Positions 8,019 to 13,329 of a stretch of DNA of 32,423 bases are shown here, piece after piece. The DNA comes from Candidatus Nomurabacteria bacterium (GTDB taxonomy: Bacteria > Patescibacteriota > Minisyncoccia > Phycocordibacterales > UBA9973). The stretch lies in assembly GCA_009695015.1 (NCBI GenBank), contig SIBT01000002.1, forward strand, positions 1 through 32,423. Reading direction: 5' to 3'. A program made the translations under genes and the position numbers. The stretch's first letter is position 1. Each line of letters opens with the position of its first letter. Under the pieces are notes generated by a model, which ran no database searches, had not been told where the DNA came from, and was given only the letters and a program-made list of their open reading frames with translations.

Positions 8019-9011
8019 TTAAACACTAAAGTTTGAAATATTATATAAATCAGCATCGTCTTGTTTTACTTCTTCTTTTGATCGGTCGTCGAGAGGTACT
8101 TCAGCACTTACATCGTCCTCAGGCAGGTCTTTAAGCACTGTATTAGCAATGTGGTTTTCCATCATTTCATCTGGTCTTTTTTCAATATTTGATTTATTAA
8201 TCAAACTCAAAATCTCGCGTAAATCTTCGATAGAAAAATAATCTATTTTGATTTGTCCACCTGATTCTTTTTTTTCTATATGCACTCGCGTGCCTAACTT
8301 TTCTTGAAATTCTTCTTCAAGTTCGGTTACTTCTGGATCTGGCATAAATTCTTTTTTGCGGACTCGGTCATAAGCTATTTTTCTAGCCAGTCTTTCCGCT
8401 TCTCGGACAGTAATTTTTTTATAGACAATTTCTTTAAACAATACGAGTTGCTCTTGTGGATGATCCGCAAGCATAAGTATCGGCCTAGTGTGACCCTCTG
8501 TGATCTTGCCATCTCGGAGACCAGTTAGTATTTCTTCCGGTAATGTTAAAATACGCAAAGAATTAGAAACGTATTCCCTACTCCTGCCCATTTTCTTTGC
8601 GATTTCATTGTGCGTGAATTTAAATTCGTTTGCTAGCCTGAAAAAAGCGCGAGCACGATCTACGACGTTTAAGTCTTCACGTTGTAAATTTTCAATAATA
8701 GCGAGCTCTAGCTTCATAATAGCCGTGTCGCCGGTACGGATGATGACTGGTACTTGAGAGACATGAGCAAGAATTGCCGCGCGAAGTCTGCGCTCGCCGG
8801 CGATCAATTCATATTCTGTAACAATACCACCCCCGTCTTTTTCTAATTCCACTCGTGAAACGGTGAGTGGTTGAAGCACCCCGTATTGCTTTATAGAATC
8901 AGCTAGGTCTTGTAGACGTAGTTCGTCAAAATCTCGCCGTGGCTGATATGGGTTTGGTTTTATCTTATCAGTATCAATCCAGAAAATTGAATTTGAATAA
9001 ATATTGGACAT
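8019..9011 (-). CDS. parB: ParB/Spo0J-family partition protein
   Basis: 330 aa. It has the ParB N-terminal box (IKPNPYQPRRDFDE), the GERRLRAA arginine patch and an HTH region (HNEIAKKMGRSREYVSNSLRIL). No parA is adjacent in this window. Confidence 0.85.
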   Translation of the reverse strand: MSNIYSNSIFWIDTDKIKPNPYQPRRDFDELRLQDLADSIKQYGVLQPLTVSRVELEKDGGGIVTEYELIAGERRLRAAILAHVSQVPVIIRTGDTAIMKLELAIIENLQREDLNVVDRARAFFRLANEFKFTHNEIAKKMGRSREYVSNSLRILTLPEEILTGLRDGKITEGHTRPILMLADHPQEQLVLFKEIVYKKITVREAERLARKIAYDRVRKKEFMPDPEVTELEEEFQEKLGTRVHIEKKESGGQIKIDYFSIEDLREILSLINKSNIEKRPDEMMENHIANTVLKDLPEDDVSAEVPLDDRSKEEVKQDDADLYNISNFSV

Positions 9012-9049
9012 GAGTTATATTCTAACACAGAATTTTTATTTTGTTTCAA

Positions 9050-9135
9050 GTGCAGTATTCTTGAATTAGTCCGAACGCATTTCGGGAAGGAAATCCCTCC
9101 GCGAAAATTCGGAAAGGCGGCGGAGCCGCACCGCT
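9050..9135 (+). repeat. 86-bp inverted repeat 'e', left copy
   Basis: gtgcagtattcttgaattagtccgaacgcatttcgggaaggaaatccctccgcgaaaattcggaaaggcggcggagccgcaccgct. It is the exact reverse complement of 9911-9996 (86/86, checked base by base). Confidence 0.95.
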
Positions 9136-9138
9136 GAC

Positions 9139-9162
9139 AATTTCAAGTTTTTCTTTGGCGGC
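9139..9162 (-). repeat. 24-bp fragment identical to recombinase codons (inverted copy of 10230-10253)
   Basis: The reverse complement of 9139-9162 is gccgccaaagaaaaacttgaaatt, identical to 10230-10253 (AAKEKLEI). It sits between the cargo ORF stop and repeat e. Confidence 0.85.
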
Positions 9163-9180
9163 AAATTCTTTAATGATTTC

Positions 9181-9831
9181 TTAATGAAGAAATTTAAAGG
9201 TCGAAAGAACACTATTGAGTAAGGCTAAAACACTACTCTCATTTACTCTCGAAATCTTAGTGTTTGTTGAGTAAGCTAAATCTGTTGTGTTAATTCTCAA
9301 AATTATTTCTAAACAACCCTGCTCATGAAGAGTTCGATACATCCAATCTTTACTTTCATGTCCGGATGATTTGAATATGCCACCCGCCGTCTCGGAGAAA
9401 GTAATATTATCGATTTGTTTTTTAGGAATAACAGTCCCAACACATTTTGCTTCGGTATCAAAACGCTTAATCACGCTTATTGCAACCGCGGCTCCCTCAA
9501 GATTTGTATCTGTGTATGATTTAGATGGAAAATATAAACATGCGACTATATCACGAGGATCACATGGATAAAAAATATTATGTGGCAAAGCTGAAATTTT
9601 TTGTCGATCCTGTTCTCCATCGTAAAATTCCCCACTTGGTGGGTAGCTTATCTCAAACCCGTATTTCTCATTTGTATATTTTTTCCAGTCAGAAACTTGA
9701 GCTAAAGCTGGAGGTTCTTGTCCTTGGTTAATGGGTGTTTGCCTCTTGGACATTATAAAATATCCACCAGCGATTATGATAGCAACGACGACAACAATCA
9801 AAATAATATTTACAAATCCTTTTTTACTCAT
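9181..9831 (-). CDS. Hypothetical membrane-anchored or secreted protein (N-terminal TM helix, extracytoplasmic domain)
   Basis: 216 aa with an ATG start. A single N-terminal hydrophobic helix (FVNIILIVVVVAIIIAGGYFI) is followed by a Cys-containing soluble domain. I recognise no catalytic motif. Confidence 0.7.
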   Translation of the reverse strand: MSKKGFVNIILIVVVVAIIIAGGYFIMSKRQTPINQGQEPPALAQVSDWKKYTNEKYGFEISYPPSGEFYDGEQDRQKISALPHNIFYPCDPRDIVACLYFPSKSYTDTNLEGAAVAISVIKRFDTEAKCVGTVIPKKQIDNITFSETAGGIFKSSGHESKDWMYRTLHEQGCLEIILRINTTDLAYSTNTKISRVNESSVLALLNSVLSTFKFLH

Positions 9832-9833
9832 AT

Positions 9834-9860
9834 GATTAAAAAATTTTCTTCCCCCAAAAT
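9834..9860 (-). repeat. 27-bp 'A box', inverted copy, 2 nt upstream of the cargo ORF ATG
   Basis: The minus strand reads attttgggggaagaaaattttttaatc, identical to the plus strand at 10093-10119. Confidence 0.9.
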
Positions 9861-9861
9861 T

Positions 9862-9910
9862 AAAATATGGTTCGAGCCGATGTTTTTCTCCGGGTTCTTT
9901 TGCGGTTTTG
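9862..9910 (-). repeat. Two abutting inverted fragments of the recombinase gene (B: 27 bp, C: 21 bp)
   Basis: 9862-9888 is the reverse complement of 11471-11497 (gaaaaacatcggctcgaaccatatttt). 9890-9910 is the reverse complement of 10274-10294 (caaaaccgcaaaagaacccgg). One nucleotide (9889) joins them. Confidence 0.9.
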
Positions 9911-9996
9911 AGCGGTGCGGCTCCGCCGCCTTTCCGAATTTTCGCGGAGGGATTTCCTTCCCGAAATGCGTTCGGACTAATTCAAGAATACTGCAC
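9911..9996 (-). repeat. 86-bp inverted repeat 'e', right copy
   Basis: Exact reverse complement of 9050-9135. It overlaps repeat D by the 4 nt GCAC (9993-9996). Confidence 0.95.
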
Positions 9997-10092
9997 CACG
10001 TAGGAAAAGTCAAAGAGTTTTGGTTCGCCTCGCTTCGCTCGGCGACCAATTGGTATTCAATTTTTGGGGTAAAAACGAATTGGCGGTTTCGC
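9993..10092 (-). repeat. 100-bp inverted repeat 'D', left copy
   Basis: Reverse complement of 11498-11597 with 99/100 identity. The single mismatch is at 10034 versus 11556. Confidence 0.95.
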
Positions 10093-10119
10093 ATTTTGGG
10101 GGAAGAAAATTTTTTAATC
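10093..10119 (+). repeat. 27-bp 'A box', 17 nt upstream of the recombinase ATG
   Basis: attttgggggaagaaaattttttaatc, identical to the minus strand of 9834-9860. Confidence 0.9.
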
Positions 10120-10136
10120 CTTAATCAAACAACAAT

Positions 10137-11645
10137 ATGAAATACATACTTTATGCGAGAAAATCTACCGAAGAAGATGACCGACAAGTGCTTTCGATTG
10201 AAGCGCAACTCGTAGAGTTGCAAGAGTATGCCGCCAAAGAAAAACTTGAAATTATCGCTTCCTTCCAGGAAGCCAAAACCGCAAAAGAACCCGGGCGAAT
10301 AAAATTCGCAGAAATGTTGTCATTGATTGAGAGAGGAAAGGCAGATGGAATTATTTCGTGGCACCCCGACCGCCTCGCGCGCAATTCGGTGGACGGCGGA
10401 AAGATTATTTATTTTGTAGATCGCGGCTTGATTCGCTCTCTAAAATTTCCCACTTTCTGGTTTGAACCGACACCGCAAGGGCTATTTATGCTGAACATTG
10501 CTTTTGGCCAATCAAAATATTTTGTAGATAATTTGCGAGAGAATGTGAAGCGAGGTTTGCGGCAGAAAATCAGGAATGGCGTATGGCCCGGCTGGGCCCC
10601 GGTTGGCTACCTAAATAATCCTAAAACTCGCGGGATTGATGTTGATAGCAAGAAAGCACTCAAAGTGAGGAAGTTGTTTGAAATGTACGCCACCGGAGCA
10701 TATACGCTTCATTCTCTCGCAAATTGGTGCAGGGAAAATGGTTTAGTCGGCAATCTCGGCAAGCCGCTTGTCATCGCCAATATTCAGAAAAATCTACAAA
10801 ATGTTTTCTACCTTGGCTTGATGAAATGGAAGAGGGAAATTTTTGAGGGAAAACACGAGCCGTTAATTTCAAAGAAACTTTTTGATTCTTGCCAAGAAGT
10901 GATGGCGAAACGCGGGAAGGTACAAGAAGTGAGAAAACACCACTTTACTTTTCTTGGCTTACTCAAATGTGCTTCGTGCGGTTGCTCCATTACTGGAGAG
11001 CGACAGAAAGGACATAACTACTATCGTTGCACCAAAAAGAAAGGTCCTTGCCAAGAAAAGCATTATCTCCGCGAGGAAGCATTAACCGAGCAAATCAAAA
11101 ACTTCTTGCAAAAAGTTTCTTTATCGAGCCAAGACACCGAGAAAGTTCTAGCGGCGTTAGATACAGAACAGGATAAAGCGAGAGAGGATGCACAAAGCGA
11201 AGTTGGGATCTTAAAAGACCAATTATCACAATTTGAGATAAAACTTCAAAGGTTGTTAGACATTTATTTAGCCGATGCTTTATCCACAGAGGAATACACC
11301 GCCAAAAAACAGAGTTTGCTGTCTCAAAAGGTCGCTCTCGTGGAGAAAATCACCGACTTTGAGCAAAAAGGATTATCTTGGCTCGAACCGGCTCGTGAGT
11401 TCGTAAAATCCTTAAATCAAGCCATAAAATTGATTGATGAGAATAATCTTTCCGAATTGCCAACATTTCTGAAAAACATCGGCTCGAACCATATTTTGCG
11501 AAACCGCCAATTCGTTTTTACCCCAAAAATTGAATACCAATTGGTCGCCGAGCGAGGCGAGGCGAACCAAAACTCTTTGACTTTTCCTACGTGGTGCCCA
11601 GGGAGAGAATCGAACTCTCATGATGTTGCCATCAATAGATTTTGA
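10137..11645 (+). CDS. Large serine recombinase (resolvase catalytic domain + recombinase domain + zinc ribbon + coiled coil)
   Basis: 502 aa ORF. The N-terminus MKYILYARKSTEEDDRQVLSIEAQ contains the catalytic Ser motif. DRLARN, WAPVGY and the zinc ribbon CASCGCSITGERQKGHNYYRCTKKKGPC are present, followed by a long coiled-coil-like segment. The frame only stops (TGA 11643-11645) after reading antisense through 54 nt of tRNA-Leu, so the native C-terminus is uncertain. Confidence 0.9.
   Translation: MKYILYARKSTEEDDRQVLSIEAQLVELQEYAAKEKLEIIASFQEAKTAKEPGRIKFAEMLSLIERGKADGIISWHPDRLARNSVDGGKIIYFVDRGLIRSLKFPTFWFEPTPQGLFMLNIAFGQSKYFVDNLRENVKRGLRQKIRNGVWPGWAPVGYLNNPKTRGIDVDSKKALKVRKLFEMYATGAYTLHSLANWCRENGLVGNLGKPLVIANIQKNLQNVFYLGLMKWKREIFEGKHEPLISKKLFDSCQEVMAKRGKVQEVRKHHFTFLGLLKCASCGCSITGERQKGHNYYRCTKKKGPCQEKHYLREEALTEQIKNFLQKVSLSSQDTEKVLAALDTEQDKAREDAQSEVGILKDQLSQFEIKLQRLLDIYLADALSTEEYTAKKQSLLSQKVALVEKITDFEQKGLSWLEPAREFVKSLNQAIKLIDENNLSELPTFLKNIGSNHILRNRQFVFTPKIEYQLVAERGEANQNSLTFPTWCPGRESNSHDVAINRF
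11498..11597 (+). repeat. 100-bp inverted repeat 'D', right copy (recombinase 3' coding end plus the last 6 nt of tRNA-Leu)
   Basis: gcgaaaccgccaattcg...cttttcctacgtggtgc, matching the reverse complement of 9993-10092 at 99/100. Confidence 0.95.
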
Positions 11646-11678
11646 GTCTATCGCGTCTACCAATTCCGCCACCTGGGC
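11592..11678 (-). tRNA. tRNA-Leu (anticodon CAA), class II with a long variable arm, CCA encoded
   Basis: Manual fold of GCCCAGGTGGCGGAATTGGTAGACGCGATAGACTCAAAATCTATTGATGGCAACATCATGAGAGTTCGATTCTCTCCCTGGGCACCA. The acceptor is GCCCAGG/CCTGGGC. The anticodon arm is ATAGA-CTCAAAA-TCTAT. The variable arm is GATG-GCAA-CATC. The T arm is GAGAG-TTCGATT-CTCTC. Confidence 0.92.
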
Positions 11679-11750: not shown

Positions 11751-11768
11751 TATCTCATATATGAGATA
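11751..11768. promoter_or_regulatory. 18-bp perfect palindrome spanning the first ATG of the HTH-MurA gene (candidate operator)
   Basis: tatctcatatatgagata is its own reverse complement. It overlaps ATG 11761 and lies 14 nt upstream of the alternative ATG at 11782. An AT-rich background lowers its significance. Confidence 0.35.
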
Positions 11769-13329
11769 TACTGTTTTTTATATGACTAAAGTAAGAAAAG
11801 AAACCGAATTAGAAATAGAGACTGAACAGCAAAAGATCGGTTATTTTATTAAAGAATTACGTGAACGACGTGGGATGACACAAGAACAGTTTGCTAAAGC
11901 CTTGAATACTTCTCAGAGTTCAATTCCACGTATGGAGAAAGGCGAGCAGAATTTTACCACAGAATTACTCCTAAAAATAAGTAACGTTTTAGATCATCAG
12001 ATAGTTTCTATAAATGATTCGATCGATTTCGAAGTAAATGGAGGTAAAAAATTAAGTGGAACGATAAAAACCAATTTTTCAAAAAATGGTTCCGTGGGGC
12101 TTCTTTGCGCTTCTCTTGTAAATAGTGGCACAACTACTCTCCATGGCATCGCCCGGATTGAAGAAGTGTTTCGTGTGATTGAAATATTAGAAAGTATTGG
12201 AGTTATTGTAAAATGGCTCAACCAGAATACTTTAACAATTACACCACCCAATAAATTTACTATAGAAAATATTAATATAGATTCAGCGATCAAGACACGT
12301 TCGATCGTGATGCTCATAGGGCCCCTCATTCACAAATTATCTTCTTTTTCTATCCCCCACGCATATGGATGCAATCTCGGTAAAAGAACTATCGCTGCTC
12401 ATATATATGCGTTAGAAGAACTTGGCGTAAAGATAAAAACAACAAACAAAAGTTATGATGTTAGTGTAAAAAAACTTAAACCAGCAAAAAATATAGTGAT
12501 GTATGAAACCGGGGAAACAGCCTGTGAAAATGTTTTGTTTGCTTCGGCTTTAATTTCCGGAGCTACCACGATAAGTTTTATGAGTAATAACTATTTCGTC
12601 CAAGAGATTTGTTTTTTCTTAGAAACATTGGGGGTAAAAATCGATGGCGTTGGTACGTCTACTTTGACCGTTCATGGGGTATCCGAAATAAATAAAAATG
12701 TCGAATATTCAAATAGTGAAGACCCGATCGAATCTATGATGTTTATTTCAGCTGGAATTATTACTGATTCACATATCATTATCACTCGCGTGCCCATAGA
12801 TTTTTTATCTTTAGAACTTGAAAAATTAAAAAGAATGAATTTGAAATACAAAATCTTAAAAAGATACTACTCACACAATGGTCGAACAAAACTCGCTGAT
12901 ATAGAAATTTTTCAAAGCAAATTGAAAGCATTACAAGATAAAATACATGCAAACATTTACCCCGGAATAAATATAGACAATCTTCCCTTCTTTGTGCCGA
13001 TAGCAATACGCGCCAAAGGACAAACGATGATTCACGATTGGTATTATGAAAATCGCGCAATCTATCTGACTGAATTAAACCGCCTCGGTGCGGAAATCAC
13101 TCTCGCAGACCCTCATCGTCTCTATATTGTAGGTGGAACAGCTCTTAAGGGCGCTCAAGTGGTTTGCCCGCCTGCCCTGCGTCCTTCGATGGTCATTTTG
13201 ATCTCTATGCTCGGAGCTAGTGGTAAATCAATCTTACGAAATGTCTATATGATAAATCGTGGTTACGAGGAAATAGCCGAACGACTAAATTCTATCGGCG
13301 CAGATATTAAAATAATCAAGGGAAACTAA
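11761..13329 (+). CDS. murA: UDP-N-acetylglucosamine 1-carboxyvinyltransferase (MurA) with an N-terminal XRE-type helix-turn-helix extension
   Basis: 522 aa. Residues ~25-80 (IGYFIKELRERRGMTQEQFAKALNTSQSSIPRMEKGEQNFTTELLLKISNVL) form a typical HTH_3/XRE motif. The rest aligns to MurA: GGKKLSGTIKTNFSKNGS (Lys22 region), YGCNLGKRTIAAHI (Cys115/Arg120 loop), YPGINIDNLPFF (Asp305 region) and INRGYEEIAERLNSIGADI (Arg397 region). The start may be ATG 11761 or 11782. Confidence 0.85.
   Translation: MRYTVFYMTKVRKETELEIETEQQKIGYFIKELRERRGMTQEQFAKALNTSQSSIPRMEKGEQNFTTELLLKISNVLDHQIVSINDSIDFEVNGGKKLSGTIKTNFSKNGSVGLLCASLVNSGTTTLHGIARIEEVFRVIEILESIGVIVKWLNQNTLTITPPNKFTIENINIDSAIKTRSIVMLIGPLIHKLSSFSIPHAYGCNLGKRTIAAHIYALEELGVKIKTTNKSYDVSVKKLKPAKNIVMYETGETACENVLFASALISGATTISFMSNNYFVQEICFFLETLGVKIDGVGTSTLTVHGVSEINKNVEYSNSEDPIESMMFISAGIITDSHIIITRVPIDFLSLELEKLKRMNLKYKILKRYYSHNGRTKLADIEIFQSKLKALQDKIHANIYPGINIDNLPFFVPIAIRAKGQTMIHDWYYENRAIYLTELNRLGAEITLADPHRLYIVGGTALKGAQVVCPPALRPSMVILISMLGASGKSILRNVYMINRGYEEIAERLNSIGADIKIIKGN

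Follow-up and report, generated by a model that had tools for sequence, protein, structure and literature searches.

Inverted arms around a large serine recombinase gene of Patescibacteria: probable attachment-site copies within a small tRNA-targeting element

The window analyzed here, that is, the whole stretch of 32,423 nucleotides (nt) at positions 1 to 32,423 of contig SIBT01000002.1 from Candidatus Nomurabacteria bacterium (assembly GCA_009695015.1), contains a recombinase gene, rec, that is enclosed by a long inverted repeat and meets a tRNA gene at its far end; this study concerns the segment 9993-11597 delimited by that repeat. The product of rec, 502 amino acids (aa) long, scored above the cut-offs of the Pfam families Resolvase (PF00239), Recombinase (PF07508) and Zn_ribbon_recom (PF13408), and this combination of domains identifies it as a large serine recombinase (LSR). 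Among solved structures, 4kis/6dnw and 9dxh came closest; the PDB matches, to the C-terminal domain of the A118/LI integrase and to SprA of SPbeta, reflect distant kinship, and CcrB and XisF were weak family matches. A repeat search and a direct comparison of the arms gave an inverted repeat of 101 nt (left arm e, 9993-10093; right arm e', 11497-11597) with a single mismatch, 10034 T versus 11556 G, and the match broke off sharply at either end. This bears out an earlier analysis (the sequence-only reading), which had described the repeat as 100 bp long with 99 of 100 positions matching. Residues 454-486 of the open reading frame (ORF) at 10137-11645, RNRQFVFTPKIEYQLVAERGEANQNSLTFPTW, are contained in the right arm, and the roughly 33 final codons that had been ascribed to it are indeed the last 33 conserved ones. 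This arm terminates in TGGTGC, the reverse complement of the GCACCA at the 3' end of the tRNA-Leu(CAA) on the minus strand, as had also been proposed. The left arm stops 44 nt before the ATG of rec and therefore lies where the sequence-only reading had placed it, just upstream of a supposed rec promoter region, but neither a consensus scan nor conservation gave a sigma-70-like promoter for rec in this 44-nt leader. No Rfam family matched the arms, the tRNA being the only match.

A second pair of repeats, D and D' (9050-9135 and 9911-9996), is exact over 86 nt and brackets a 216-aa ORF, here called the cargo gene, which has an N-terminal hydrophobic segment and found no match in a family search. 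The two repeat pairs do abut at 9993-9996, as had been claimed, since D' shares the GCAC at this place with arm e, core included. Between the cargo gene and D' lies a leader composed of three segments, u', t' and s', which are exact inverted copies of 10093-10119 (u), 11471-11497 (t) and 10274-10294 (s) on the rec side. Inside rec, in addition to s and t, there are the motif b (10222-10256), with a synonymous-site identity of 0.96, and a palindrome m at 10257-10273. The cargo cassette as a whole is a circular permutation of the rec segment in which the D palindrome replaces the small palindrome m. The latter (GCTTCCttccaGGAAGC) is situated between b and s, at the position that the long D'..D palindrome would take in a circularized cargo cassette. 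The features are listed in Table 1.

Table 1. Features of the element and its target in the window.
Feature	Position	Strand	Remarks
D arm, left end of the element (attL-like)	9050..9135	+	core GC 9052-9053; exact 86-nt repeat
b'	9136..9170	-	inverted copy of rec codons 29-40 (10222-10256), ~91%; directly after cargo stop codon
Cargo gene ORF216	9181..9831	-	variable slot between u' and b'
Cargo leader x2	9834..9910	-	u' 9834-9860, t' 9862-9888, s' 9890-9910
M (D'-GC-e)	9911..10093	-	core 9993-9994; internal inverted copy of the element's attachment site
Promoter-like site across the M core	9985..10013	-	TTGACT 10013-10008, 17 nt, TATTCT 9990-9985; consensus match
e, left arm	9993..10093	+	non-coding inverted copy of e'; first bases GCACCA
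rec, large serine recombinase gene	10137..11645	+	502 aa; Pfam
e', right arm, right end of the element (attR-like)	11497..11597	+	core GC 11596-11597; would supply A73-C74-C75-A76 to the tRNA
tRNA-Leu(CAA), integration target	11592..11678	-	T-loop CGAAC 11611-11615, 14-18 nt from core

The joins D'-e-rec and rec-e' were reproduced without differences by Logan contigs from other runs, namely X2 contig 12 (spanning 9911-10308), X1 contig 4 (11426-11581) and X3 contig 22 (11497-11586). Because these error-free contigs of independent runs cross both joins, the left arm is no product of a collapsed or chimeric assembly, a possibility that the sequence-only reading had raised.

Relatives of rec number more than 552 in a GTDB collection with one genome per species. 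Among them, 80 loci with 66-90% amino-acid identity to rec were fetched, nearly all of which bear Patescibacteria-type labels, and several genomes hold more than one copy. The order D, b', variable gene, u' t' s', D', e, u, rec (with b, s and t inside), e' was constant in every locus with enough flank, and more than 50 Patescibacteria genomes show the layout D - cargo - D' / e - rec - e' / tRNA. When arms were sought de novo, 51 loci proved to have a recombinase gene enclosed by a pair of them, each about 100 nt long. All complete loci contain b', and the cargo leader is conserved at 95-100%. The slot between these two held genes for HIT, methyltransferase, NUDIX, SET, bPH_2 (bacterial PH), asparaginase or membrane proteins at other loci, and the cargo ORFs mostly begin no more than about 20 nt beyond u. 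In very deep groundwater metagenomes, the depths of contigs that match the recombinase and arms at 90% identity or more summed to 10^4 to 6 x 10^4, and the body of the window's own cargo gene was covered only about 6x in the same runs. Three of the runs (X6, X8 and X9, groundwater- or soil-labeled metagenomes of 2015-2016) showed high depth over 9008-9261 and 9770-11674, and joints that link u straight to b in the deep runs indicate an empty cargo slot in many copies. These loci represent a very abundant and apparently undescribed family of small mobile elements of Patescibacteria, of which the inverted arms are a conserved hallmark and for which the 3' end of nearly any tRNA gene can be the target.

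The junctions of these loci were compared with the tRNA genes next to them. A tRNA gene on the opposite strand adjoins the right arm in 38 of 50 loci, with 20 tRNA species represented, and the core at the right junction varies with the tRNA: it reads GC, GA, CC, GT or CA, and after it come A or G and the CCA. Within each locus, the core dinucleotide is identical at the left junction, at the right junction and at an internal site, M, where D' and e meet; in the window it is GC at 9052-9053, 9993-9994 and 11596-11597. At the left junction, the two bases beside D are the core, and outside them lies the original tRNA tail. In the window this tail is AC plus trailer, with the displaced A73-C74 of the tRNA read as GT at 9050-9051; about 11 of 27 loci have ACCA and the trailer there. 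In L042 and L064, the left junction retains G73, whereas the right junction now has A73. A displaced tail on the left, a new ACCA on the right and a core shared by both place the crossover at tRNA nucleotides 71-72, and the same location of the core follows from the motif distances in the distant L079/L080 subfamily. The 4-nt GCAC overlap of the repeat pairs then results from the two bases of the shared core and from A73-C74, which are common to the displaced tail and to arm e. A crossover inside the CCA was rejected, as the left junctions differ from M in the two bases beside the flank and keep the tRNA's own discriminator.

The D arm holds a half-site resembling a tRNA T-arm, GAAT-TAGTC-CGAAC (9063-9076), where the tRNA has GAAT-CGAAC. 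The distance of GTTCG from the junction is 23 nt in the case of D' and 18 nt in that of the tRNA, and the shift of 5 nt was observed in 32 of 32 loci. In serine integrases, the distal ZD motif, which is bound by the zinc-ribbon domain, lies 5 bp closer to the central dinucleotide in attB than in attP (PMC3783163), and the T-arm spacing of D versus the tRNA is in agreement with this ZD shift. Judged by these spacings, e'-GC-D has the properties of an attP-like site and the tRNA end those of an attB-like site, with flank-GC-D being attL-like and e'-GC-tRNA attR-like. Also, mini-elements of 240 bp with the structure D-s-t-e', devoid of a recombinase gene and of the inverted repeat, occur at tRNA-Lys(CTT) and tRNA-Arg(GCG) (L090, 2281-2530; L091, about 163-397), which shows that insertion depends on the ends D and e' but does not require M. 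On the far side of the mini-element in L090, the displaced ACCA and the terminator hairpin of the tRNA are visible. Of the features by which LSR integrative elements are recognized, the domain architecture, a 2-bp core at both junctions and a 5-bp motif shift between attP and attB were found.

The two arms of a locus had a median identity of 99% (at least 98% in 41 of 51 loci), as compared to about 70% between loci. Locus-specific substitutions are common to both arms, and in L010 even a 25-nt insertion is; as the alignments of the loci indicate, the arms evolve in concert. L003 and L010 are mosaics into which a different recombinase 3' end was recombined and in which the arms are not yet homogenized. 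Probably, the arms are kept identical by gene conversion via host homologous recombination. In L020, L022, L028, L035 and L046, rec is broken by frameshifts or stops while the arms are still 98-100% identical, and therefore no functional copy in cis is needed for arm identity. At the only mismatch in the window, the G at 11556 (Gly) deviates from the A (Ser) that is the family consensus in nearly all other loci, and the left arm retains the consensus; compared with the aligned loci, it is the coding arm that has recently changed, from Ser to Gly. The sequence-only reading had left a choice between recombinases that end near VAER and recombinases that extend further, and the C-terminal alignment showed that no orthologue stops near VAER: every orthologous ORF runs through the arm to the crossover core (...NRxFxFxPKIxYxLVAE...FPxW) and then into a tRNA-derived junk tail. 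In the window the conserved protein ends at W486-C487 (11594-11597), with a remaining tail that is encoded by the tRNA, and alternative ORF tails are unconserved in the same alignment. Two further islands within rec, 10857-10883 and 11109-11135, had synonymous-site identities of 0.83 and 0.90 against a baseline of about 0.5 in 43 orthologues; they have no repeat partner in the element and suggest further constraints at the DNA or RNA level.

The internal site M is the exact reverse complement of the junction e'-GC-D that a circular form would have, including the polarity of asymmetric cores, and its core co-varies with both outer cores and with the resident tRNA. The integrated element thus carries a second, inverted and complete attP. 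The only sigma-70-like site of the intergenic region crosses the core of M, with TTGACT in e and TATTCT in D', and reads via D', s, t and u into the cargo gene; the positions of TTG and TAnnCT are kept in M of other loci. The cargo lies downstream of e'-core-D-s-t-u in every arrangement seen, flipped ones included. Given this promoter-like site, the constant downstream position of the cargo and the fact that the cargo genes are unrelated to each other, M is probably a promoter/operator module of the cargo, with a putative -35 box in e and a putative -10 box in D'. By analogy, M may resemble the junction promoter of a circularized transposon, but permanently fixed inside the element. Contigs from metatranscriptomes contain sequences of the family including the arms, which is of low value as they are unstranded and may include DNA. 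An 88-aa ORF across the internal site (9828-10094, minus strand) is annotated as a hypothetical protein in more than 100 public protein clusters and is most likely a by-product of the repeats, in which the coding sequence of the arm is read on into D, and no gene.

Clearly, the orientation of rec is strongly skewed. In all 51 GTDB loci with arms rec points at the tRNA, and in none of the 51 does a tRNA adjoin the left arm. The flip-specific pattern D'-e-t' was found in 0 of 82 loci (reference pattern D'-e-u, 7), but it matched 7 metagenome contigs. Among these arrangements, L086 is a clean flip with the structure D-cargo-D' / e / inverted intact rec / e' / tRNA-like end and arms of 102 nt that are 100% identical. 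L083 and L089 share the relative orientation of L086, and their trailer-side junction can be seen; the recombinase gene of L087 is flipped and carries an internal deletion, L084 is a remnant, and L085 and L088 are rearranged in other ways. Such flipped or rearranged copies account for the e'-D junctions in L083-L089. In a census of protein clusters (the best 120 for a peptide of arm plus D), about 107 were of the reference type, 3 had t-e'-D continuity (flipped or otherwise rearranged), with only one of these 3 being a plain recombinase C-terminus, and 2 were mini-elements. No flipped joint was present among the best-supported joints of the deep runs, where 31-mer contigs cannot span the 101-nt arms; the deep-run Logan joints shown are those of the cargo leader. 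Inversion of the rec segment therefore occurs and is tolerated, yet it is rare. As the sequence-only reading had predicted, either orientation preserves both the ORF and the tRNA. Its comparison of rec with hin as an invertible unit is right insofar as flipped copies exist, whereas the near-fixed orientation and the 502-aa LSR are not those of a Hin-type system, and the shufflon-like layout of two segments has to be abandoned: the enzyme is of the serine type, and the cargo segment between D and D' was never found flipped in the loci examined, which excludes a shuffling of two segments. Canonical serine integrases do not recombine attP with attR (PMC3783163), and host homologous recombination between the 101-bp repeats would be the simplest source of the rare flips as well as of the homogenization of the arms.

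The perfect 27-nt inverted repeat u'/u (9834-9860 and 10093-10119) surrounds the 232-nt block t'-s'-D'-e and forms the proximal leader of both divergent genes; a flip of this bracket would aim the promoter-like site of M at rec and not at the cargo, a state seen in no locus. In L050 (201-2500), two tandem cargo cassettes are connected by a D'-to-D join from which the center of the palindrome is deleted. A second, divergent recombinase gene occupies the cargo slot of L055 (1-250), and in L085 the outer part of arm e is duplicated, with 65 nt of unrelated sequence between the copies. Outside the element, the neighboring gene at 11761-13329 encodes an N-terminal Cro/C1-type helix-turn-helix fused to a full EPSP-synthase/MurA-family domain, which is an unusual combination.

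These data document that the element inserts at tRNA ends, that M is identical to the joined ends, that the half-sites of D and the tRNA stand in a P-type/B-type relation, that the arms evolve in concert and that the rec segment is, rarely, inverted in nature. We propose, with a probability of roughly 0.6, that 9993-11597 is the recombinase module of a tRNA-targeting LSR element, in which the arms would be copies of attachment-site (att) arms, M the promoter of the cargo and the flips incidental. An element of about 2.5 kb (9052-11597) would have entered the tRNA-Leu(CAA) gene at its 3' end through the action of its own LSR, crossing over at GC, nucleotides 71-72. The right arm e' would be the right end of this element, combining an att arm with the last 33 conserved codons, and would provide the tRNA with a new discriminator and CCA. 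The left arm e would be one half of M, located between the divergent cargo and rec genes, and no second recombination end, and a flip of the rec segment would probably be a by-product of host recombination between the arms and no programmed switch.

Several points weigh against this proposal. Gene conversion without frequent crossover is an assumption. Neither an excised circle nor an empty site was found for the window locus in contigs, as opposed to reads, at 3-8x depth, and no candidate directionality factor was identified. A palindromic GC core should abolish the polarity of a serine integrase (PMC3783163), so that near-fixed orientations call for selection or for an unknown determinant. 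The promoter in M rests on a consensus match, and the RNA contigs are of the unstranded kind described above. Finally, the D'-D arrays in L050 and cassettes on both sides of rec in L085 and L089 hint at independent movement of cassettes where the core is palindromic.

Four other explanations have to be considered. A programmed self-inversion, possible but unlikely in our judgment, would keep rec silent while it faces the tRNA; the flipped gene, located immediately downstream of the tRNA gene and read in the same direction, would be expressed by read-through from it and would drive transposition, in an ON state too short-lived to be assembled often. Such a switch is consistent with the flipped copies with perfect arms and intact ORF (L086, L083 and L089), with the lack of a promoter-like site for rec in the reference orientation according to the consensus scan, with the preservation of ORF and tRNA either way round and with the strong concerted evolution of the arms across the family, as would be expected under selection on the repeat itself. 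However, none of the 51 GTDB loci is flipped and only about 3 of the 120 protein clusters are, the pairing of attP with attR is foreign to canonical serine integrases, and the contigs searched gave no read-level sign of mixed orientation in any population. We also considered an integron-like platform, in which each gene would be a circular cassette with a palindromic site of its own (e'-GC-e for rec, D'-GC-D for the cargo) and a crossover at the GC core would split the palindrome and leave inserted cassettes flanked by long inverted repeats that abut at the core; we regard both parts of this scheme as quite improbable. It would account for the presence of a flanking repeat pair around each gene with a core shared by the pairs, for the diversity of cargo genes in one fixed slot, for the tandem cargo cassettes, joined D' to D, of L050 and of an RNA contig, for cassettes on either side of rec if L085 and L089 are read jointly, and for the circular permutation between cargo cassette and rec segment, with the palindrome at m and not at the t/u junction. 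In loci with asymmetric cores (TC in L048 and L066; GG/CC in L073, L076, L079 and L080), however, the M core has inverted polarity, which conservative insertion of separate cassettes cannot produce; in addition, a palindromic site confers no polarity and yet the cassettes are fixed in orientation, and the two ends of the mini-elements are unlike, one being D and the other e'. On account of the loci with asymmetric cores, independent cassette insertion was rejected as a general mechanism for the family, and it is retained only as a lesser alternative for those elements whose core is GC. A self-contained serine-integrase platform in which flips of rec would alternate between silence and read-through, the cargo would be swapped at the internal site where the core is the palindromic GC, and arms mimicking a tRNA 3' half would allow landing on almost every tRNA gene and repair the target seems decidedly unlikely to us; if true, this would join transposon, inversion switch and integron in one unit.

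Pairing of the arms in the rec mRNA, and of D' with D in the cargo mRNA, could lead to processing by RNase III or stabilize the transcripts, in which case the repeat in the DNA would be kept for the sake of this pairing. Long perfect complements do bracket both genes, the arms co-vary within loci, and family sequences including the arms are present in metatranscriptome contigs, but gene conversion equally predicts the co-variation, the outer parts of the arms are fully accounted for as attachment half-sites, and Rfam gave no family match, and hence a role at the RNA level is very improbable. The chance that a chimeric or collapsed join created the left arm is practically nil: contigs of this organism do break at repeat borders in some runs, yet this explanation is refuted by the error-free independent contigs and by the same layout in more than 50 independently assembled genomes. 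An origin as a DDE transposon or a miniature inverted-repeat transposable element, which would call for a DDE transposase, ends that mirror each other and a duplicated target site, was rejected, as D and e' are not mutual inverted repeats, the ends of the mini-elements are unlike each other and the only enzyme is a serine recombinase. A phage origin was rejected as well, with only two partial matches among viral contigs.

The family described here would be a very abundant mobile one in a major, poorly understood bacterial radiation, and its copies in species genomes number in the hundreds. It exemplifies how the universally conserved T-arm and acceptor end can serve a serine integrase as a landing site of general use, with the tRNA being restored, and the element moves diverse single genes between lineages with few other known vehicles of gene transfer. 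For engineering, the combination of a natural attB at a tRNA 3' end with an attP half-site that obeys the 5-bp rule offers a defined test case for site recognition. For annotation, it should be considered that the C-terminal tail of the recombinase is tRNA sequence read as protein and that contigs of these organisms tend to break at the repeats of the element.

A recombinase gene within its own invertible segment is known from hin, and Hin-type invertases have about 190 aa, a C-terminal helix-turn-helix and hix-type sites of about 26 bp, with the two orientations coexisting in populations at appreciable frequency. Like the genes of Hin, Gin, Cin and Pin, rec is a serine recombinase gene inside inverted repeats that is found either way round in nature and stays intact in each case. 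In contrast to them, it encodes a 502-aa LSR, has arms of 101 nt and a strongly skewed orientation (flips in 0 of 51 loci and about 3 of 120 clusters), and its documented activity is integration; a Hin-type invertible segment was therefore rejected. A shufflon, with the tyrosine recombinase Rci, several segments that invert singly or jointly between multiple short repeats and alternative gene 3' ends, was rejected in view of the serine enzyme, the cargo that is never inverted and the unconserved tails. With integrons the element shares a recombinase gene that faces away from a slot of diverse, promoterless-looking genes, a promoter-like site at the attachment site and palindrome-like junctions between stacked cassettes (L050), but it has a serine enzyme and not the tyrosine recombinase IntI, it lacks attI and attC, it usually contains a single cassette, and the whole unit is mobile and targets tRNA genes. 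An integron was rejected because there is no tyrosine recombinase and because the loci with asymmetric cores preclude independent conservative insertion of cassettes.

Tn4451 and Tn5397 are small elements with a single large serine recombinase (TnpX and TndX, respectively) and a circular form, and in Tn4451 the joined ends create a promoter. The Patescibacteria element is likewise small and moved by a single large serine recombinase; to our knowledge, Tn4451 and Tn5397 have neither long inverted arms nor an internal copy of the joined ends and do not target tRNA 3' ends. Phages and integrative elements with LSRs (A118/LI, phiC31, Bxb1 and SPbeta with SprA) are similar in domain architecture, in the 2-bp core and in the 5-bp motif shift. 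Unlike them, the Patescibacteria element targets the generic 3' ends of many tRNA species and not one locus, is only 2-3 kb in size with one cargo slot and usually a palindromic GC core, and has an inverted complete internal attP and near-perfect arms of about 100 nt, with no directionality factor seen. In the searchable literature there was no published description of such an element, and the nearest analogue is the tycheposon. Tycheposons of Prochlorococcus have the size of phage-inducible chromosomal islands (10-20 kb), possess mostly tyrosine recombinases and integrases specific for one tRNA, and many carry replication genes; a minority uses large serine recombinases (bioRxiv 10.1101/2020.12.28.424599). 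The two have in common that they are cargo-carrying elements at tRNA genes without phage, plasmid or conjugation machinery, and the element described here differs in its size of 2-3 kb, its serine recombinase, its use of at least 20 tRNA species and its nested inverted repeats.

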